Shown here piece by piece: positions 3,381 to 16,238 of a stretch of 64,000 bases of DNA; the stretch's first letter is position 1, and each line of letters starts with the position of its first letter. Source of the DNA: Escherichia coli (GTDB lineage: Bacteria; Pseudomonadota; Gammaproteobacteria; Enterobacterales; Enterobacteriaceae); the NCBI RefSeq assembly GCF_044324785.1, contig NZ_CP172127.1, one strand, 5' to 3'. Made by a program: the position numbers and the translations under genes. The notes under the pieces are model-generated. The model had not been told where the DNA came from, ran no database searches, and was given only the letters and a program-made list of their open reading frames with translations.

Positions 3381-4103
3381 TTAAACGATGCGGCAGGCGT
3401 CGGCTTCCCAGCGGTAACCGACGCCGTAAACGGCGCGGATAAATGACTGTTCGGCGTCGAGAGATTCCAGCTTGCGACGCAGGTTTTTAATGTGGCTGTC
3501 GATGGTGCGGTCGGTTACTACGCGGTAGTCGTCATAAAGATGATTGAGCAATTGCTCGCGGGAGAACACTTTTCCTGGTTCATGAGAGAGCGTTTTCAGC
3601 AGACGAAATTCCGCAGGCGTCAGGTCAAGCATTTTACCGCGCCATGAAGCCTGAAAACGACCTTCGTCGATAATCAACGGGCTTTCAGCATCCTGTTGCT
3701 GCAACTCACGCTGCGGTTTGCAACGGCGCAAAATGGTTTTGACGCGCGCTACCACTTCCCGTGGGCTGTACGGTTTGCAGATGTAGTCATCTGCGCCAAT
3801 TTCCAGCCCCAGCAGGCGGTCGATCTCTTCGATTTTTGCTGTCACCATCACGATCGGAATGTCAGAAAAATGACGAATCTCCCGACACAGCGTCAGGCCA
3901 TCGGTACCTGGCAGCATCAGATCGAGCAGGATCAGATCCGGCGGCGACTGGTGAACGTAGGGCAGTACCTGATCGCCGTGGCTGATAAGCGTCGGCGCAT
4001 AGCTCGCAGCACGCAGATAATCAATGAGCAACTGCCCCAGCTTCGGTTCATCTTCCACGATCAAAATACGCGGTGTGTTTTCGTCGATTGGTAACTCGGT
4101 CAT
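3381..4103 (-). CDS. baeR: response regulator BaeR (OmpR family), 240 aa
   Basis: Full-length translation [26 protein letters not shown]... recognised as BaeR. 4-bp overlap with baeS. Confidence 0.95.
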
Positions 4104-5503
4104 ACTTCTCTCTGTAAATCCCGTTCCAGCGGTAACTCTACTGTAATGCTTACCCCGCCAAAAGGCGAATGGGCAGCAATAATGCGGCCATTATGGGCTT
4201 CAACAATGTTCAGGCAAATCGCCAGCCCCAGCCCGGAACCGCCGCTGGCGCGGTTGCGGGAACCTTCGGTGCGATAAAAACGTTCAAACAATTTTTGTAG
4301 CTGATCGTCACTGACGCCCGGCGCGCTGTCAGCAAAGGTCAGGCGCACCGTTTTGTCGTGCTGCTCGGCAGAGATTTTCAGGCTGCCGCCACTGTCAGTG
4401 TAGCGCAGGCTGTTTTCCAGTAAGTTATTGAATAACTGCATTAAACGGTCGCGATCGCCAAATACGGTAATACTGTCTGGCAGGGAAAATTGCAGTTTCA
4501 GGCCACGGCTGGCGAATCGTTCGCGAAATGCGCCGCCCGCCACTTCCAGCAGTGGGATCAAATCTACCGGTGCTTTTTGATAGGCGAGAGCGCCTTCATC
4601 AGACATCGACAACTGATGGAGATCGTCAACCAGTTTGGTCAGTGTACCGACCTCCGCCTGTAAAGACGCCACCGTCTCCGGCGTGAATTTACGCACGCCA
4701 TCCTGAATGGCTTCCAGTTCACCGCGCAGCACCGCTAATGGCGTACGCAGTTCGTGAGAAATATCGGCCATAAAATCGCGCCGCATTTGCTGGTTTTTCT
4801 CCAGCGTGCTGGCAAGCTGGTTGAAGTCTTGCGCCAGTTTGCCCAGTTCATCTTCACTGGTGGGCGTCACGCGGGTTGTGAAATCGCCCGCCGCCAGTTT
4901 GTGCGTGCCGTCCACCAGCCGTTTGACCGGGGCCAACAGACCACGCGCCAGCAGAAAGGTGGCGAGCGCCGCGAGTAACGTTGCCAGGGCGACAATCAGC
5001 CAGCTGGTTTGCCGCTGTTGTTTATCGAAATTGATATCAGTATTGCGGGTCAGTCGCTCAACAGGGGAGGCAATCACCGCACCCACTTCCGCACCGTTGA
5101 CCAGAATGGGTCGCCGTGTACCGTCAGGTGGAATCGGCGCTCGCGGACCAACCAGCACTTTGTTGTTTTGATCAACCACCCAGAACTGAGTACGCCAGCC
5201 GTGTGGTGGCATACCCGGGCCGGGTTTATCTTCCGAATTATCGTGTTCAAATGAGCGCAGGATCTGAAAGACAAAGCGATCATTGTTGCGCAGGAAGCGC
5301 CAGTTGCCATGCTGCGCATACTGCTCGCCAAGCGCATCACTTAACAGTTGTAATCGCTGTTCATTACCATGCTTGATGTAATCAATAAAGCCACGCTCAA
5401 AACTGATACGCACCGCCCAGTGCATACTGATCAGCAAGACAATGCAGGTGGCGAAAATCGCCAGAAACAGTTTACCGGTAATACCGGGTCGCCAGAACTT
5501 CAT
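4100..5503 (-). CDS. baeS: sensor histidine kinase BaeS, 467 aa
   Basis: TM segments, H-box (SHELRTPL) and ATPase domain. Position between mdtD and baeR. Confidence 0.95.
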
Positions 5504-6915
5504 TGCGCGCTCCTTTTTCGCCGCGAAATAGCTACATTTTGATGCGTATCGTTCGGCACTCTGGCAAAGATGAACGCCGGAAGGGCGATGATCAACGCCA
5601 TGCTAAGCCAGGTGTACATAAAGACGGTTTGTGTGGTGCCGCTGTCGATGCTGACATGCTGCGAACCAAAAAGCCCCAGCAACAGCCCGGCGATGGTGAC
5701 GCCGATACTCATCGACAATTGCATAATCATCGACAGCAGACTGTTGCCGCTGCTCGCCAGATTGTCCGGAAGATCTTTCAGCGTCAGGGTGTTCATGGAG
5801 GAGAAACGGGTCGAGTTGACCATCCCTTGTAAAAACAGGACGAACGGCAAAACGTAGTACCAGCCCAGCAGAGCGGTAGTCATAAACAATAGGGTGACCA
5901 GCGACAGACCCAGCGTGGTCGCCACCAGTACCCGACGATAACCAAAGCGATTCACTACCTGTACCACAATTCGCTTCATCCCCATGCTGCCGAGCACCAT
6001 CGGGATCATCATCAGTCCGGCATGAAACGGTGAGAAGCCAAGGCCAATTTGCAGGAAAACCGGCGTCATAAAGGGCAACATGCCGCTACCGATACGTCCG
6101 GCAAAACTCCCCGCCAGGCCCAGCGAAAAGGTACGAGTGCGGAACAGTTTCAGACTGAAAAGAGCGCGGTTGTTATTTCTGGCGTGCAGCAGATAAAGCA
6201 CCAGTGCTACCACGCCAACAGCGACCAGGCCAGTAATCGCCAGCGGCGATAAACCTGTACCTTTACTGCCATCCAGCGCCAGGGTTAATACCGCCATGCC
6301 AACCGCCAGCAATAAAAAGCCGGAAAGATCAAAGCGCCGCGTCTGCATGGTGTAGTTCGGCATCAACATTAGTGTTGCGATCGCACCGATAATCCCCACC
6401 GGAATGTTGATCAAAAAGATCCAGTGCCACGATGCGTACTCCACCAGCAGACCGCCGAGCGCCGGACCCAGCAGCGGACCGACCTGACCGGGCAGTGTGA
6501 CAAAGGTCATCGCCGCCATATATTGCTCGCGCGGTACGATTTTCATCACCGTCAATCTGCCGACCGGCACCATCATCGCACCGCCAACGCCCTGTAACGC
6601 GCGTGCCAGCAACAGTTCGTTTAGCGTGCCGGAAAGCGCGCAAAACAGTGAACCGAGAGTAAACAGTACGATGGCGGTAAAGAAAATATTGCGCACGCCG
6701 ACTTTGTCCGCCAGCCAGCCGCTGGCGGGCAGCATCACCGCCACGGTCAGCACATAAGAGACAATGACCATGTGCATATGCAACGGACTTTCCCCGAGGC
6801 TTTGCGCCATTGAGGGAAGCGCGGTGTTGACGATGGTGGTGTCCAGCGACTGCATAAAGAAGCCGAAAGCCACAATCCACAATTGCCAGCGGGTGCTGTC
6901 GGGAAGATCTGTCAT
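5500..6915 (-). CDS. mdtD: MFS transporter MdtD, 471 aa
   Basis: Hydrophobic multi-TM protein between mdtC and baeS. Overlaps baeS start by 4 bp. Confidence 0.93.
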
Positions 6916-9900
6916 TTACTCGGTTACCGTTTGTTTAGGTTTACGCGAAAAACGCAGCCGCAGACGGTCGAAAAAGAGATACACCACCGGCGTGGTATAC
7001 AGCGTCAGAAGCTGGCTCATTACCAGACCGCCGACAATGGTGATCCCCAGGGGTTGGCGCAGCTCCGAACCGTCACCGCCCGACAATACCAGCGGCAGCG
7101 CGCCAAACAGCGCCGCCAGGGTAGTCATCATAATCGGGCGAAAACGCAGCAGACAGGCCTGGAAAATAGCTTCCTGCGGCGTCAGGTTACCGTGCCGTTG
7201 GGCTTCAAGCGCAAAATCGACCATCATAATGGCGTTTTTCTTCACGATGCCGATTAATAGCATGATCCCTATCAGGGCGATTAGGCTGAACGGGGCATTG
7301 AACAGCTCCAGCGCCAACAGCGCTCCAACGCCCGCCGAGGGCAGGGTGGAGAGAATCGTCAGCGGATGTACGTAACTCTCGTAAAGGATACCCAGCACGA
7401 TATACACCGTGGCGATGGCGGCGATAATCAGGATCACCTGCGAGTTCATCGTCTCCTGGAACACCTGCGCTGTTCCGGCAAAACTGCCGCGCACCGTCGA
7501 AGGCACGCCAAGTTGCGTCATTGCGCGATCGATCGCCGCACTGGCGTCCGAGAGCGATTTTCCGGTCGGCAGGTTAAACGAAATGGTCGAGGCTGCCGAT
7601 AACCCCTGATGATTCACCGACAGCGGAGCATTCGCCGGTTGCCATTTAGCGAAATACGACAGCGGGATCGCTTTTCCTTCGTTATTGATAACGAACATTT
7701 TTTCCAGCGCACTGATGTCCTGGGTATAGCGCGGATCCACTTCCATCACCACTTTATACTGGTTCATCGGCTGGTAAATGGTCGAGATTTGTCGCTGACC
7801 GAAGGCGTTATTTAACAGGCTGTTGGCGGCCTGCACGTCGATTCCCAGCCGTGCCATAGTGTCGCGGTCGTAAACCAGATTCATCTCCGCGCCGTTATCC
7901 TGCTGGTCGGAGTTCACGTCCGCCAGTTCCGGCAATGTCGCCAGTTTTTTGCGGATTTTCGGCTCCCATTCGCGCAGTGCCGCCAGGTCGTCGGACAGCA
8001 ACGTGTACTGATAGCTGGCGTTCGACTGACGTCCGCCAACGCGAATATCCTGTACCGCCATCAGGAACAGATTCGCCCCCGGTTCTTTCGCCAGCTTCAC
8101 CCGCAGACGGTCGATAATTTGCTGCGCCGTTTCGCTGCGTTCGCCGCGTGGCTTGAGGGTGATAAACATCATCCCGCTGTTCACCCGCGAACCGCCGGTA
8201 AATCCGGTGACATTATCCACTGCCGGATCGTCACGGATAATTTTCATGAAATCCTGCAACTTACCGCGCATCGCCTGAAACGAAATACTCTGATCCGCCT
8301 GTATCCCGCCCATCAACACGCCGGTGTCCTGCTCCGGGAAGAAGGTTTTCGGGATCGAGATATATAGCCAGATATTCAGCGCAATGGTGCCAAGCAGCAC
8401 CACGCCCACCAGACGGGTATGATTGAGCACCCATTTCAGTGACTTGCCGTAGCTTTGTTGCAGGGCTACCAACATGCGACCAAAACCACGCAGACGCTTT
8501 TGCTCGCGCGGCTTGCTGGCTTTCAGCATCCAGCCGCACATCATCGGCGTTAGCGTCAGGGAAACCAGCAACGAAATCCCAATGGCGACAGAAAGCGTCA
8601 CGGCAAATTCGCGTAACAGGCGGCCCGGCAATCCGCCCATCAACAGTAGCGGCAGGAACACCGCCACCAGTGACAGACTCATTGATAGCACCGTAAAGCC
8701 GACTTCACGGGTGCCTTGCAGCGCGGCCTGTAGCGGTTTCATCCCCGCTTCCAGATGACGGGCAATGTTTTCCAGCACCACGATGGCGTCATCCACCACA
8801 AAGCCAGTGGCGATGGTGAGCGCCATTAACGACAGGTTATTGAGACTGAATCCGCACAGGTACATCGCCGCAAAAGTACCAATCAGCGAAACCGGCACCG
8901 CAACGGCGGGAATAATAGTGGCGCGACCCGAGCGTAGGAATAAAAAGACCACCAGAATCACCAGCGCCACCGAGATAATCAACGTTTGCTCGACTTCCTC
9001 CAGCGAGGCGCGAATGGTGGGGGAGCGATCCTGAGCAATTTGCAGATCAATCGCCGCCGGAATGGTCTCCTGCAACTCCGGTAATTTTGCCCGGATGCTG
9101 TCAACCGTCTGGATAATATTGGCTTCCGGCAGCTTGCGGATCATCAGCAAAATAGCCGGTTTGGCGTTGGTCATCCCGGCGTTGCGCACATCCTGCACTG
9201 AGTCGGTCACCGTCGCCACATCGCCCAGACGAACCGCGCCGCCGTTGTTGTAATGAATAATTAACGGCTGATATTCAGCGGCGGTTTTTAGCTCATCATT
9301 GGTCTGGATCTGCCAGCGGTGAGTGCTATCTTCCAGCGCCCCCTGCGGTTTACGCACGTTGGCATTGCTGATGGCAGTGCGAACATCGTCCAGCGACACG
9401 CCCTGATTAAACAGCGCCTGCGGATTCAGCCCGACGCGCACGGCGGGCAGTGAGCTGCCGCCAACATCGACATCACCGACACCGTCGATTTGCGAAATCG
9501 TCGGAGCCAGCTGCGTCGAGGCGAAATCGTACAGTTCACCCTGCGAATAAGTATCGGATGTCAGCGTGAGGATCATAATTGGCGCATCCGACGGGTTCGC
9601 TTTGCGATAGGTCGGACGGCTGGGCATCCCACTGGGCAGCAAACTTTGTGCAGCGTTGATCGCCGCCTGCACATCACGCGCTGCGCCGTTGATATCCCGG
9701 TCAAAATCAAACTGCAAAATAATGCGCGTGCTGCCGAGCGAACTACTGGAGGTCATTTCACTAACCCCGGCAATGCGCCCAAGTGAGCGTTCCAGCGGTG
9801 TGGCAACGGAAGACGCCATTGTCTCCGGCGATGCACCGGGCAGCGAGGCGCTGACCATAATCACCGGAAAATCGACCTGTGGCAGCGGGGCGACCGGCAG

Positions 9901-9993
9901 CATACGGAAGCCCAGTATGCCGCACAGGGTAATGGCGACCGACAGTAAAATCGTCGCCACCGGGCGGTAAATGAAGAGGGCAAAAAACTTCAC
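6916..9993 (-). CDS. mdtC: RND multidrug efflux transporter MdtC, 1025 aa
   Basis: RND/AcrB-like 12-TM architecture with large periplasmic loops. Abuts mdtB and mdtD. Confidence 0.95.
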
Positions 9994-12900
9994 TTACGCC
10001 TCCTCTTCATGACGAGCAAAGCGGCTTTTGGTCCACAATGCCAGACGGTCGAATAGCAGATAAATCACCGGCGTGGTAAACAGCGTCAGCACCTGGCTGA
10101 CAATCAGACCGCCGACCATGCCGATCCCTAACGGACGACGCAGTTCCGCGCCGACCCCGGTACTCAACATCAGCGGCAGCGCGCCAAGCAGAGCCGCCAG
10201 GGTGGTCATCAGGATCGGACGAAAACGCAACAGACAAGCCTGGTAGATTGCATCGCGTGGCGACATGCCTTGCTCGCGCTCAGCAGCCAGCGCGAAGTCG
10301 ATCATCATGATGGCGTTCTTCTTCACGATACCGATCAGCAAAATAATGCCGATAATCGCAATCACATCCAGCTCGCTACCGGCAATCAGTAGCGCCAGCA
10401 GTGCGCCGACCCCTGCGGTGGGTAGCGTCGAGAGAATGGTGATCGGGTGAATAAAGCTCTCGTACAGAATGCCGAGCACGATATACATCGCCACCACCGC
10501 CGCGACAATCAGCCAGACAGTGCTGCCAAGCGCCGACTGGAAGGCGAGGGTGCTGCCCTGGAACTGCGTGGTGATATCCACTGGCAGATTCAGCGTCTTC
10601 TCGGTGTCCATAATCGCCTGCACCGCATCGCCCAGCGAATAGTTATCCGGCACGTTAAAGGAGATGGTCGTTACCGGGAACTGATCCAGATGGTTGATGG
10701 AAAGCGGCGCAAAACGCTGCTCAATTTTGGCAATTGAGCTTAACGGCACCACGCCACCGTCGCTGCTGGTCAGGCGAATGGTATCCAGCGCCGCGAGGCC
10801 TGGGGTATTTTCGGTGTTGTGTTCCAGCACTACGCGATACTGGTTAGCCTGAGTATAAATAGTGGAAATCAGCCGCTGACCAAACGCGTTGTACAGGGCG
10901 TTATCGACATCCGCCATGCTGATCCCCAGACGGCTGGCGCTGTCGCGATCAACGTTGACATACGCCACCAGCCCTTGGTCCTGCCAGTCGCTGGAGACAT
11001 CAGAAAGCTGTGGCAGTTGCTGGAGTTTTTCCATCAACTGTGGCACCCAGGTACTGAGCGCATCCAGTGACGTGGCCTGTAAGGTAAACTGGTACTGGGT
11101 GCGGCTGACCTGAGTATCAATAGTCAGGTCCTGCGTTGGTTGCAGGAAGAGATCGACGCCCGGCACTTTATCTACTGCCGTTTGCAAACGAGCGATGACT
11201 TTTTGCACCCGATCATCACGTTCATCCAACGGTTTGAGGTTGATCTGTAAACGCGCACTGTTCAGCGACGGGTTAGTGCCATCAACGCCAACAAATGAGG
11301 TCAGGCTTTGCACTGCCGGATCCTGCAAAATCACATCCGCGACCTGGCGTTGCCGCTGGGCCATATTGGCAAAGGAGCTGGATTGCGGTGCCTGCAAAGT
11401 GCCCTGAATAATGCCGTTGTCCTGTACCGGGAAGAAACCTTTCGGAATGAACACCCACAACAGCACGCTAAGCAGCAGCGTGCTGAGCGCCACGCTTAAG
11501 GTCAGCCACGGATGATTCAGCACTTTCGCCAGTCCCTGACCATAGGCGGCGATTATCCTGTCGAACATTTTTTCCGAGGCACGGGAGAAGCGGTTCTGTT
11601 TACGCAGCGACTCCTGGCTGAGCATCCGCGCACACATCATCGGTGTCAGGGTCAGCGACACCACGGCTGAGATCAAAATCGCGACTGCCAGAGTAATAGC
11701 AAATTCGCGGAACAGTCGCCCGACGATATCGCCCATAAATAGCAGTGGGATCAACACTGCAATCAGTGAGAAGGTCAGCGAGATAATGGTAAAGCCGATT
11801 TCACCCGCGCCCTTGAGCGCCGCCGCCAGCGGTTTTTCGCCTTTTTCGATATAGCGGGAAATGTTTTCGATTACCACGATGGCGTCATCGACCACGAATC
11901 CGGTGGCGATAGTTAACGCCATCAGCGTCAGGTTATTGATTGAAAAATCGAGAAACACCATAACCGCAAAGGTGCCAATTAACGACAGCGGCACTGCGAC
12001 GCCAGGAATGATGGTCGCCGGAATATTGCGCAAAAACAGGTAGATAATCATGACTACCAGCGCGATAGCCATCATCAGTTCAAACTGGGTATCGTCGACC
12101 GATGCGCGGATGTTGGTGGTGCGGTCAGAAAGCACCGTCACTTTTACCGATTTCGGCAAACTCTCGGTGAGTTGTGGCAGCATCTGCCGGATGCTGTCGG
12201 CGGTGGAGATAATGTTAGCACCGGGCTGGCGCTGAACATTCATCACAATGGCCTGTTCTTTGTTCGCCCACGCGCCGAGCCAGCTGTTTTCTGCTCCTTG
12301 CTCTACGGTTGCGACATCGCCCAGACGAATCGGCGCGCCGTTCTGGTAGGCGATGATCAGCTGGCGATACTCTTCGGCGGATTGCATCTGGTCGTTCGCG
12401 GAAAGTGTGACCGCACGAGAAGGGCCGTCGAGGCTACCTTTTGCCGAGTTAACGTTAGCGCCGGTAATAGCGGTGCGCACGGTTTCGCTGGTCAGGCCGA
12501 GGGCGGCAATCGCCTGGGCGTTAAGTTTGACGCGAACAGCCGGACGCTGGCCGCCGGAAAGCGTCACCAGGCCGACGCCGGAAATCTGCGAGATTTTCTG
12601 CGCGACGCGGGTTTCCACCATATCTTCCACTTGCGTCATTGGCATGGCGGTTGAGGTGACGGCGAGCGTCATGATTGGTGGATCTGCCGGGTTCACTTTG
12701 CTGTAAACCGGCGGGTTAGGCAGATCGCCCGGCAACAAGTTGGTCGCAGCGTTAATCGCGGCCTGCACCTCCTGCTCGGCGACATCGAGCGGTAATGTTA
12801 GCTGGAACTGCAAAGTGATAACTGACGCACCGCCGGAACTTTGCGACGACATCTGTTTCAGGCCGGACATCTGCCCGAACTGGCGTTCGAGCGGCGCGGT

Positions 12901-13116
12901 AACGGCAGAGGTCATGACATCCGGGCTCGCACCTGGGTAGAGCGTGACCACCTGAATGGTCGGATAGTCCACTTCCGGCAGCGCCGAAACGGGCAGGGCG
13001 CGATAACCGATAATCCCGGCGAGTAAGATCGCCACCATCAGCAGCGTGGTGGCGACAGGACGCATAATAAACAGGCGCGACGGGCCGCCTGTGCTGCTAG
13101 GAGGTAACACCTGCAT
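9994..13116 (-). CDS. mdtB: RND multidrug efflux transporter MdtB, 1040 aa
   Basis: RND family paralog directly upstream of mdtC. Confidence 0.95.
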
Positions 13117-14363
13117 CAGGAGCGTGCTCCTTTTTTCGCGTATTCGCGGCTGGTGGCTTTCTCTTCCGGAGTGGTGGCGCTCTGGGCTTCCACCACTTCC
13201 ACTTTCGCCCCTTCGGTCAGGCGATCAATGCCGTCTGTCACCACGCGGTCGCCCGCAGAAATACCTGCGCGGATCACCACTTTCTGACTGTCCTGAATGC
13301 CCGGCGTCACCAGATGTTTGCTGACCTTGTTTTCGCTATTCAGCACCCAGACAAAATGGCCTTCATTGCCCATTTGCAGGGCGGCGGTGGGGATCACCAC
13401 GGCGTTTTGTTCGGTGTCGACTAACATACGCGCGTTAACAAACTGATTGGGAAACAGCGCATCCTCCTGATTATTAAAGCGTGCTTTCACTTTAATCGTA
13501 CCGGTAGTGGCATCGATTTGGTTATCGAGACTTAACAGCGTGCCTTCACTTAATTTCTTCGAGTTGGTGCGATCCCAGGCTTCAACAACCAGCGGTTTTC
13601 CGGCTTTTTGCGCCTGTACTACGGTAGTGATATCGCTTTCCGGCAGGGTAAAGAGCAAATCGATAGGATGCGTCTGGGTGATCACCACAATCCCGGTGGT
13701 ATCACCACTGGAGATTTGGTTACCAACATCAACCTGCTTGAGACCAACGCGACCATCGACTGGTGCGGTGATGCGGCTCCAGTCGAGTTGCAGCTGCGCG
13801 CTGGCGACGCTTGCTTCATCAGCCTTAATGGTGCCTTCTGTTTCACTGACCAGCGCTTGTTGGGCATCCAGTTCCTGACGAGATACGAGATTGGTTTTTA
13901 CCAGTTGTTGATAACGCGCCAGGTCACGGCGGGCGTTGGCAAGCGTGGCTTTATCTTTTGCCAGTTGGCCCTGGGCTTGTGCTAATGCAACTTTGAACTG
14001 GCTGGGGTCAATTTCTGCCAATAAATCGCCTGCTTTGACCTGCTGGCCTTCCTGGAAATGTAACGCCATCAGTTGACCGTCCACGCGGCTGCGCACCGTA
14101 ACGGTATTAGCGGCGGTAATGGTGCCAAGCCCGGTGAGATAACGTGGCACAGCTTGTTCTACGGCAGTCGCCGCCTGAACCGGGGCTAATGGGCCGGCAC
14201 GCATACCACGGCGACCACCCGCTGGCGATTGCTGCGCTTGTTTGGTCGCCCCTGGGGCTGCACTCTGGGAGTCATTGCGGCCTTGCCAGAACCAGAATGC
14301 GGCGATGGCGGCGATAACCACCACGATTACGATTACCCAACGGGATTTATAACTGCCTTTCAT
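13116..14363 (-). CDS. mdtA: RND efflux membrane fusion protein MdtA (415 aa from ATG 14363)
   Basis: Translation from ATG 14363 reads [28 protein letters not shown]..., matching MdtA. The track ORF (to 14510) is an upstream extension. 1-bp overlap with mdtB. Confidence 0.9.
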
Positions 14364-14416
14364 CGTTAAGAGTTTCTCTTCCTGAAACGTTTCGCGGAAT
14401 GATACTAGTGTAGCCA

Positions 14417-14434
14417 GCCAATAAGGGAGAAAAA
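14417..14434 (-). promoter_or_regulatory. putative BaeR binding box in the mdtA promoter
   Basis: Minus-strand sequence TTTTTCTCCCTTATTGGC lies ~55-70 bp upstream of the mdtA ATG and matches the BaeR box consensus as I recall it (TTTTTCTCCATDATTGGC) at 16 of 18 positions. Confidence 0.5.
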
Positions 14435-14589
14435 TGGAGGAATTATGAAACACTGTCGGGAATCGTCTGAATGACGGGCACATTTGCGAGCACGCATCCA
14501 GTAATAACACATGAAACTATTTTATCTACGCGTTAGCGATAGACTGCTTGCATGGCGAAAGGAGGTAAGCCGACGATTTCAGCGGGACG

Positions 14590-14740
14590 CTGAAACGGGA
14601 AAGCCCCTCCCGAGGAAGGGGCCATAAATAAGGAAAGGGTCATGATGAAGCTACTCATCATCGTGGTGCTCTTAGTGATTAGCTACCCAGCATACTAAGA
14701 CTACCAGGGCGGGGGAAACCCCGCTCTACCCTCACTCCTG
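14590..14740 (-). ncRNA. sib: Sib antisense sRNA (antitoxin of ibs copy 1); boundaries approximate
   Basis: Minus-strand promoter-like TTGACA (14770..14765) and a CATACT -10 downstream of the ibs stop. Transcript would be fully antisense to ibs. Ends not determined. Confidence 0.45.
14642..14698 (+). CDS. ibs: Ibs-family small hydrophobic toxin (type I TA), copy 1: MMKLLIIVVLLVISYPAY
   Basis: 18-codon ORF after an AAGGAAAGGG SD. Sequence matches the Ibs toxin peptide family. Confidence 0.75.
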   Translation: MMKLLIIVVLLVISYPAY

Positions 14741-14917
14741 AAAGTATGCCTTCACGATAAGATTGTCAATCTGCAGGCTTTGCAGTCTGCGATCCTGCCA
14801 GCAAATATTCTTTGCGAGACGTTACGCAATAATCACATGTGAAACTATTTTATCCGCAAGTCAGCGATAGACTGCATTCAGGGCGAAAGGAGGTAAGCCG
14901 ATGATTTCAGCGGGACG

Positions 14918-15068
14918 CTGAAACGGGAAAGCCCCTCCCGAGGAAGGGGCCTTAAATAAGGAAAGGGTCATGATGAAGTGGATCATCATCGTGGTGCTCT
15001 TAGTCATAAGCTTCCCGGCTTACTAAGACTACCAGGGCGGGGGAACCCCCGCTCTACCCTCACTCCTG
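14918..15068 (-). ncRNA. sib: Sib antisense sRNA (copy 2); boundaries approximate
   Basis: Placed by repeat periodicity (~328 bp) relative to copy 1. Confidence 0.4.
14970..15026 (+). CDS. ibs: Ibs-family small hydrophobic toxin, copy 2: MMKWIIIVVLLVISFPAY
   Basis: Second repeat unit, same architecture. Confidence 0.75.
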   Translation: MMKWIIIVVLLVISFPAY

Positions 15069-15249
15069 AAAGTATGCCTTCACGATAAGATTGTCAATCT
15101 GCAGGCTTTGCAGTCTGCGATCCTGCCAGCAAATATTCTTTGCGAGTCGTTACGCAATAATCACAGAGGAAACTATTTTGTTCACGCGTTAGCGATAGAC
15201 TGCATTCAGGGCGAAAGGAGGTAAGCCGACGATTTCAGCGGGACGCTGA

Positions 15250-15400
15250 AACGGGAAACCCTCTCCCGGAGAAGAGGGCTTTTAATAAGGAAAGGGTTAT
15301 GATGAAGCACGTCATCATACTGGTGATACTCTTAGTGATTAGCTTCCAGGCTTACTAAGAACACCAGGGGGAGGGGGAAACCTCTCCCTAACCCTCACTC
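15250..15400 (-). ncRNA. sib: Sib antisense sRNA (copy 3); boundaries approximate
   Basis: Placed by repeat periodicity; a TTGACA-like box (TGTCAA on + strand) at 15427-15432. Confidence 0.4.
15299..15358 (+). CDS. ibs: Ibs-family small hydrophobic toxin, copy 3: MMKHVIILVILLVISFQAY
   Basis: Third repeat unit, same architecture. Confidence 0.75.
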   Translation: MMKHVIILVILLVISFQAY

Positions 15401-15578
15401 CTGAAATTATGTCACTCCGCCCTTAGTGTCAATCGACGGCTCTCCGTTCTTGCGAGGCGAATAGCAAAATTTTCTGCGCCGCCGGGCCTAATTCTGAAAG
15501 TTTCTTCGTTTGCTCTTATTTCATTGTTGCGGTCGGTATGATACCGGGCCTCAATAATTCTCTAAGAAAGGATTTCTT

Positions 15579-16238
15579 ATGAGCGAACAAATCACGTTTG
15601 CCACCAGCGATTTTGCCAGTAACCCGGAACCACGTTGCCCCTGCATTTTGCTGTTGGATGTTTCTGGTTCGATGAGTGGTAGACCTATTAATGAACTTAA
15701 CGCCGGATTGGTTACCTTTCGCGATGAACTGCTTGCCGACCCGCTGGCCTTAAAAAGAGTGGAACTCGGCATTGTGACGTTCGGCCCGGTGCATGTGGAA
15801 CAACCCTTTACCAGCGCCGCTAATTTTTTCCCGCCCATCCTGTTTGCCCAAGGCGATACACCAATAGGCGCTGCCATTACCAAAGCCCTGGATATGGTAG
15901 AGGAGCGCAAACGTGAGTATCGTGCAAATGGTATTTCGTATTATCGCCCGTGGATTTTCCTGATCACCGATGGCGCTCCAACCGATGAGTGGCAGGCTGC
16001 CGCCAACAAAGTGTTTCAGGGGGAAGAAGATAAGAAGTTTGCCTTCTTTTCCATCGGTGTTCAGGGGGCGGATATGAAGACTTTGGCACAAATCAGCGTT
16101 CGTCAGCCTTTTCCACTGCAGGGATTACAATTCCGTGAACTGTTTAGCTGGTTATCCAGTTCACTGCGTTCGGTTTCCCGCTCCACGCCGGGAACGGAAG
16201 TTGTGCTGGAAGCGCCAAAAGGCTGGACGTCAGTGTGA
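15579..16238 (+). CDS. yegL: von Willebrand factor A (vWA/TerY-like) domain protein YegL, 219 aa
   Basis: MIDAS-like motif [11 protein letters not shown]. Good SD (AAAGGA). Stop overlaps the yegK GTG start. Confidence 0.9.

Follow-up and report, generated by a model that had tools for sequence, protein, structure and literature searches.

The mdtABCD-baeSR operon and its surroundings

The analysed stretch of Escherichia coli DNA, 64,000 nucleotides long and referred to here as the window, carries the mdtABCD-baeSR operon on its minus strand. The make-up of the operon is as given in PMC7657598, and its genes are located as follows.

13116–14363, minus strand: mdtA, 415 amino acids, the first gene of the regulated operon (RefSeq annotation of K-12 and near-identical E. 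coli genomes)
9994–13116, minus strand: mdtB (open reading frame list)
6916–9993, minus strand: mdtC (open reading frame list)
5500–6915, minus strand: mdtD/iceT (open reading frame list)
4100–5503, minus strand: baeS, sensor kinase (open reading frame list)
3381–4103, minus strand: baeR, response regulator (open reading frame list)

The genes baeS and baeR are the last of the operon, which is therefore autoregulated. The translation of baeR matches the transcriptional regulatory protein BaeR of PDB 4B09 over residues 1–240, its full length, with E = 2.6e-157. The relatives of BaeR include PhoB, KdpE, MtrA, and similar regulators, and the window encodes the cognate regulator of the OmpR/PhoB family.

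The ATG of mdtA at 14363 corresponds to position 2154016 of K-12 and is aligned in 80 species. In a program-made open reading frame (13116–14510, 464 amino acids), mdtA starts further upstream, from a GTG at 14510, and the frame takes in the whole promoter together with the BaeR box. The location of the box within a longer MdtA frame was rejected, since the annotated start in K-12 is the counterpart of the ATG at 14363. The sequences aligned across species 5' of this ATG also show insertions and deletions of lengths not divisible by three, and their conservation pattern is non-coding.

Sib RNA genes (Rfam RF00113, 138–150 bits) occur three times in tandem on the minus strand, at 14627–14769, 14955–15097, and 15284–15432. 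Each of them is accompanied by an ibs toxin open reading frame, and the array separates mdtA from the next gene. At this locus, K-12 MG1655 carries sibA and sibB only, so that the window has one extra sib/ibs copy. The Rfam matches near the BaeR site are limited to the three Sib RNAs, none of which overlaps the site.

The BaeR box of the mdtA promoter

The promoter of mdtA contains the 18-mer TTTTTCTCCCTTATTGGC on the minus strand of the window at 14417–14434, where the plus strand reads GCCAATAAGGGAGAAAAA, as verified by direct reading and reverse complementation. The 18-mer has the same orientation as mdtA, and its 3' end is 53 nucleotides 5' of the ATG (14363, minus strand). The BaeR consensus is 5'-TTTTTCTCCATDATTGGC-3' (Nishino 2005), as it is quoted in passages of PMC3799227, PMC3915751, and PMC11644481. 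The 18-mer is identical to this consensus at 17 of the 18 positions, and the sole mismatch is the replacement of A by C at position 10. The preliminary description had reported a BaeR-box match at 14417–14434 with 16 of 18 positions identical; the match is real, and the count has to be corrected to 17 of 18 relative to the published TTTTTCTCCATDATTGGC. The same description had placed the box between the ibs/sib array and the operon, which agrees with the positions of the nearest Sib copy (14627–14769) and the mdtA ATG (14363).

The mdtA box is the single match to TTTTTCTCCATDATTGGC with at most three mismatches in the whole 64-kb window. Matches with at most one mismatch appeared in none of 100 dinucleotide-preserving shuffles of the window, and hand arithmetic gives approximately 3e-4 chance matches per window. 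The consensus was reportedly built by Nishino 2005 from the mdtA, spy, and acrD promoters of K-12. The 17-of-18 agreement is to some extent circular, since mdtA belongs to the few promoters that underlie the consensus.

A 301-nucleotide stretch, which begins 5' of the promoter and takes in the first codons of mdtA, is identical to MG1655 at 298 positions, and no difference was found in the 18-mer and its flanks within 30 nucleotides. The mdtA box of MG1655 has the coordinates 2153945–2153962. ChIP-exo of BaeR in K-12 identified two peaks 5' of mdtA (Choudhary et al. 2020, PMC7657598 Data Set S2), which are peak_5 at 2153931–2153967 with a signal-to-noise ratio (S/N) of 10.96, and peak_6 at 2153972–2153998 with S/N 14.99 (PMC7657598). 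Comparison with the mdtA site of K-12 showed the same sequence, identical at 18 of 18 positions and wholly enclosed by peak_5, so that the assignment of the box to BaeR in the preliminary description is borne out. Peak_5 is 37 bp wide and does not single out the 18-mer; its centre (2153949) is at the junction of CTCCAT and TTTTT, where a conserved upstream block meets the 18-mer. Peak_6 spans the −10-like sequence TAGTATCAT and the adjoining downstream region, and a peak over the −10 and start region would be expected of an activator cross-linked through RNA polymerase. The elements of the promoter discussed below are the following.

14417–14434, minus strand: published-type BaeR box TTTTTCTCCCTTATTGGC, 17 of 18 positions identical to the consensus, the same as the K-12 mdtA box
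14430–14451, minus strand: conserved upstream part of the operator, GTTTCATAATTCCTCCATTTTT, 93–95% conserved in 74 non-Escherichia species, in the equivalent of peak_5
14412–14448, no strand: equivalent of K-12 peak_5, taken as the stretch occupied by BaeR in vivo, mapped via the K-12 alignment
14381–14407, no strand: equivalent of K-12 peak_6, probable core promoter, PMC7657598 coordinates mapped via the K-12 alignment

The expression of mdtA in a baeR knockout of K-12 exposed to 5% ethanol is changed by −4 log2 units (approximately 16-fold), and mdtA, mdtB, and mdtC are down by 3.6–4.0 log2 units (PMC7657598). What is shown is the sequence identity with K-12 and, in K-12 itself, the occupancy and the BaeR-dependent expression. 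The evidence supports 14417–14434 as the BaeR site of the mdtABCD-baeSR promoter, already documented and the same as in K-12. Since the site is documented and the promoter is identical to that of K-12, its detection here is a re-identification; the finding of the operator at mdtA is correct, ordinary, and adds no new biology by itself.

Conserved blocks and the probable composite operator

The promoter is nearly uniform in E. coli. A 421-nucleotide promoter stretch was matched in 5419 of 5426 complete E. coli genomes, with a best identity of 99.8%. The 51-nucleotide operator query (14405–14455) is present in 5416 of the 5426 genomes, and among the 5417 matching records, 5292 have at least 99% identity over the aligned part. 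Within the genus Escherichia, variation is already seen in the ATTGGC end of the box: it is ATTGAC in the GTDB representative strain of E. coli, E69, and ATTAGC in the mdtA box of E. albertii.

For the comparison across genera, the mdtA loci of 80 Enterobacteriaceae species representatives were fetched with MdtA as the query. The 160 nucleotides 5' of the ATG were aligned for 79 loci and K-12, giving 80 sequences; one locus with too short an upstream region was left out. The alignment contains four conserved blocks at fixed spacing: (a) TTCAGAC..ATCC.GACAGT, (b) TTyCATAwTTCCTCCATTTTT, (c) CTAaACTAGTATCATT, which is the −10 region, and (d) GTTTCAGGAnGAGA in the mdtA leader. The conservation in the 74 non-Escherichia species of this alignment is as follows.

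18-mer positions 1–5 (TTTTT): commonest base 97%, identity to K-12 97%
18-mer positions 6–18 (CTCCCTTATTGGC): commonest base 59%, identity to K-12 48%
Upstream block 14449–14430: commonest base 95%, identity to K-12 93%
−10 block: commonest base 98%, identity to K-12 93%
Promoter-wide average: commonest base 72%, identity to K-12 64%

The conservation of positions 6–18 of the 18-mer is below the promoter-wide mean, and therefore the 18-mer as a unit is not the conserved element of the mdtA promoter. It is kept in Escherichia and mostly also in Citrobacter, in which it reads CTCCCTTGTTCGC or CTCCCTTGATGGC. It is not retained in Enterobacter, Klebsiella, Raoultella, Lelliottia, Kluyvera, and others. 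In the genera without the 18-mer, the best match to the consensus is displaced 10 bp upstream and reads ATTTCCTCCATTTTTCCG, with six mismatches.

Two further segments of the promoter region are conserved. The sequence TTCAGACGATTCCCGACAGTG (14472–14451, minus strand), located just 5' of the BaeR operator, is conserved in the 80 species, several of its positions at 96–100%. In K-12, it contains CAGAC twice, 10 bp apart, and it includes the −35-like half of the sole sigma-70-type match of a promoter scan. A second regulator might bind there, or the block might belong to an upstream promoter. The mdtA leader segment GTTTCAGGAAGAGA (14388–14375, minus strand), 11–24 nucleotides 5' of the ATG, is near-invariant (TTTCAGGA at 100%, GAGA at 96–100%) and its length exceeds what a Shine-Dalgarno sequence requires. 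A regulatory or leader RNA element, or the start region, may form part of it.

The upstream block GTTTCATAATTCCTCCATTTTT shares five nucleotides with the 18-mer. Three half-site-like repeats follow one another through the two elements, namely TTCAT (14449–14445), CTCCAT (14439–14434), and CTCCCT (14429–14424), with spacings of 11 and then 10 bp. The third of them is inside the 18-mer and is followed by ATTGGC (14422–14417). Direct repeats phased at 10–11 bp resemble an operator of the OmpR/PhoB type, which, given how short and T-rich the repeats are, is a weak indication on its own; their assignment as half-sites is our reading of these sequences. The conserved block can be read as GTTTCAT-AATT-CCTCCAT, in which two TyCAT cores 11 bp apart enclose an A/T tract, and TTTCAT-AATT-CCTCCAT agrees with the pho-box pattern at 12 of 18 positions. 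The 35 bp at 14451–14417 coincide with the equivalent of peak_5 (14448–14412). Downstream, TAGTAT (14407–14402) or TATCAT (14404–14399) is the candidate −10-like hexamer, and the 3' end of the 18-mer is 9–12 bp 5' of it. If one of these hexamers (14407–14399) is the −10 element, as their invariance and peak_6 suggest, the operator would overlap or abut the −35 position.

The working operator is probably a composite of approximately 35–37 bp, and the 18-mer would be its promoter-proximal part. The data favour the importance of both parts in E. coli, with the upstream tandem as the part conserved throughout the family.

The spy and acrD promoters of K-12 provide a comparison for both parts. The 18-mer of spy, TTTTTCTCCATAATTGGC (1825764–1825781), has no mismatch to the consensus, and that of acrD, TTTTTCTCCACGATTGGC, has one. 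Fifteen positions of the 18-mer, with ATTGGC among them, are invariant in the K-12 boxes of mdtA, spy, and acrD. The spy and acrD boxes are like that of mdtA in being near-identical 18-mers 5' of BaeR-induced genes. The mdtA box differs from them by C for A at position 10, which breaks the CTNCA/TCTNCANAA core (7 of 9 positions retained), where TCTNCANAA is the BaeR box of Yamamoto et al. 2008, as it is quoted in a passage of PMC3799227. The mdtA box adjoins the −10 region, whereas the spy box is approximately 90 bp upstream of the core promoter, and only the mdtA box among the three is under a BaeR ChIP-exo peak. The spy 18-mer is under neither of the two BaeR peaks of its promoter (1825677–1825711 and 1825823–1825843; PMC7657598 Data Set S2), and acrD has no BaeR ChIP-exo peak (PMC7657598). 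Therefore, the 18-mer is a poor predictor of occupancy.

Sequences similar to the upstream block are present at the same two promoters. The 20-mer AGTGTTTCATAATTCCTCCA of the mdtA upstream region (14454–14435) agrees at 15 of 20 positions with AGTTCTTCATAATCTCTGCA of spy (1825831–1825850), which overlaps spy peak_2. By shuffling, such a match anywhere in the 329-nucleotide spy upstream region has P of approximately 0.026, a value that applies to the 20-mer moved 5 nucleotides upstream relative to TTCATAATTCCTCCATTTTT; with TTCATAATTCCTCCATTTTT itself, the test against spy was not significant (91 of 1000 shuffles), and the best match was a T-rich stretch. The spy stretch under peak_2 includes TCTGCAAAA, an instance of the BaeR box TCTNCANAA. 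The 20 nucleotides 5' of the acrD box agree with the mdtA upstream block at 14 of 20 positions. The upstream BaeR peak of spy thus covers, instead of the 18-mer, a TTCATAATCTCTGCAAAA stretch that resembles the block beside the mdtA box. Salmonella and two Citrobacter species retain the 18-mer of spy, ATTGGC included. The cross-genus alignment of spy consists of only four sequences with 85% identity, in which both blocks are conserved, and it has little resolving power. It includes no promoters from Klebsiella or Enterobacter, and the list of Spy homologues is dominated by Salmonella.

Proposed mechanism of activation and alternative readings

Based on the occupancy and expression data from K-12 and the conservation of the promoter, a mechanism of activation can be proposed. 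The 18-mer is probably the promoter-proximal part of a BaeR operator, from which phosphorylated BaeR would activate mdtABCD-baeSR by occupying a stretch of approximately 35–37 bp. Envelope stress would be sensed by BaeS, which would then phosphorylate BaeR. Phosphorylated BaeR may bind approximately 35–37 bp, located in the window at about 14451–14412, along the repeats TTCAT, CTCCAT 11 bp further on, CTCCCT after another 10 bp, and then ATTGGC. The end of the operator, approximately 10 bp 5' of the conserved −10 element, would stand in for the −35 hexamer in the manner of a pho box, and BaeR presumably contacts region 4 of the sigma factor in place of that hexamer. The recruitment of sigma-70 RNA polymerase by BaeR would switch on the efflux pump genes and the synthesis of BaeR itself. 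The half-sites, stoichiometry, promoter geometry, and activation mechanism proposed here for mdtA are inferred.

Proteins of the OmpR/PhoB family bind head-to-tail on phased half-sites. The pho box consists of two 11-bp direct repeats, each composed of CTGTCAT and an A/T-rich 4-mer, and is positioned approximately 10 bp 5' of the −10 element, where it replaces the −35 element. The PhoB pho box and the mdtA site are alike in that both serve a regulator of the OmpR/PhoB family and combine a core of 6–7 bp, phased at 10–11 bp, with a T-rich tract. The distance of the 18-mer from the −10 element (9–12 bp) corresponds to the position of a pho box. The cores differ, being CTCCAT and TTCAT at mdtA in place of the CTGTCAT of the pho box, and the mdtA repeats are less regular.

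Tandem CTCCA(T/C) repeats 5' of RND efflux genes, bound by a regulator of the OmpR/PhoB type, are a further likeness, which the mdtA site shares with those of DzrR and AdeR. DzrR, which acts on an RND efflux operon of Dickeya/Burkholderia, was footprinted on CGGTTCTCCATCATATCTCCATATT (PMC10052836). AdeR, linked to RND efflux in Acinetobacter, was crystallised on AAGTGTGGAG-N-AAGTGTGGAG (PMC5766154), which is the reverse complement of CTCCACACTT repeats. The repeats of DzrR and AdeR have a spacing of 11 bp and are perfect or near-perfect, whereas those of mdtA are degenerate. Both proteins are regulators distinct from BaeR, and DzrR is apparently phosphorylation-independent (PMC10052836). MtrA and RegX3 score above AdeR among the solved relatives of BaeR, so that AdeR is not the closest of them, and for this reason the likeness is treated as no more than a lead.

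One alternative limits the true BaeR element to the upstream tandem GTTTCATAATTCCTCCATTTTT (14451–14430). Only the 5' end of the 18-mer would then count, and CTCCCTTATTGGC would be lineage-specific DNA of the −35 and spacer region that resembles the spy and acrD boxes in Escherichia only. The upstream block is 93–95% conserved, as against 48% for box positions 6–18; the distant genera have their best consensus match 10 bp further upstream; the centre of peak_5 falls on the CTCCAT/TTTTT junction; and spy peak_2 overlaps the stretch that agrees with the upstream block at 15 of 20 positions and does not reach the 18-mer of spy. Against this alternative, three unrelated K-12 promoters have 15 invariant 18-mer positions in common, including ATTGGC, which does not vary in spy promoters from Salmonella and two species of Citrobacter either. 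The 18-mer is also within peak_5, and the entire 51-bp stretch is near-invariant in E. coli. We consider a restriction of the element to the upstream tandem rather unlikely. A related proposal, which we put forward tentatively, concerns the history of the site: the 18-mer may not be the ancestral BaeR unit at mdtA, the primary BaeR site conserved across Enterobacteriaceae would be the pho-box-like tandem GTTTCATAATTCCTCCAT (14451–14434), and the CTCCCTTATTGGC of the 18-mer may be an extra half-site specific to Escherichia and Citrobacter.

The upstream block could also belong to a second sigma-70 promoter, with TTCAGA (14471–14466) as the −35 element and CATAAT (14447–14442) as the −10 element, in which case the 18-mer would be downstream of its start. 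A scan of 14300–15600 gave this pair as its single sigma-70-like match, and both TTCAGA and CATAAT are conserved across genera. However, shuffled sequences predict 1.4 such matches for the one found, which agrees with the promoter pattern at 9 of 12 positions and has an 18-nucleotide spacer. CATAAT is within the BaeR ChIP-exo peak, and a separate invariant −10 block is present downstream, under peak_6. Furthermore, the TTCATAAT..CTsCA arrangement recurs under a BaeR peak far upstream of the spy promoter. A second promoter is improbable as the explanation of the block.

Another OmpR/PhoB-family regulator in cross-talk with BaeSR, for example PhoB, CreB, or CpxR, is improbable as the main protein bound to the element. 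Such cross-talk would fit the agreement of the upstream block with the pho box at 12 of 18 positions, and cross-regulation with PhoBR and CreBC was reportedly described by Nishino 2005. Reviews name CpxRA as a co-regulator of mdtABC (PMC4462101). However, no CpxR box (GTAAA-N5-GTAAA, at most two mismatches) was found in the 277 bp 5' of mdtA, the part of the CpxR and PhoB ChIP-exo tables of PMC7657598 that was covered lists no peak at mdtA, and the expression of mdtA is strongly BaeR-dependent.

A chance resemblance without function, for which only the general abundance of T-rich sequence in promoters would speak, is excluded at the mdtA box by the shuffles, by the occupancy and regulation in K-12, and by the near-invariance of the site in E. 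coli.

The cross-species comparison bears on the prediction of the BaeR regulon. Such predictions in E. coli, Salmonella, Erwinia, and Klebsiella routinely rest on scans with the 18-mer. At mdtA, conservation of two-thirds of the 18-mer does not extend past Escherichia and Citrobacter, and the 18-mers of spy and acrD do not coincide with ChIP-exo occupancy. The poor conservation of the 18-mer beyond Escherichia and Citrobacter, as opposed to the near-invariance of the adjoining pho-box-like tandem, suggests a testable refinement of the BaeR motif on the basis of sequence comparison. If the tandem reading is true, phased T(T/C)CAT/CTCCAT repeats would have to take the place of the BaeR motif used for regulon prediction. 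A motif of phased CTCCAT/TTCAT half-sites might better predict the targets of BaeR, including efflux genes that contribute to antibiotic resistance.
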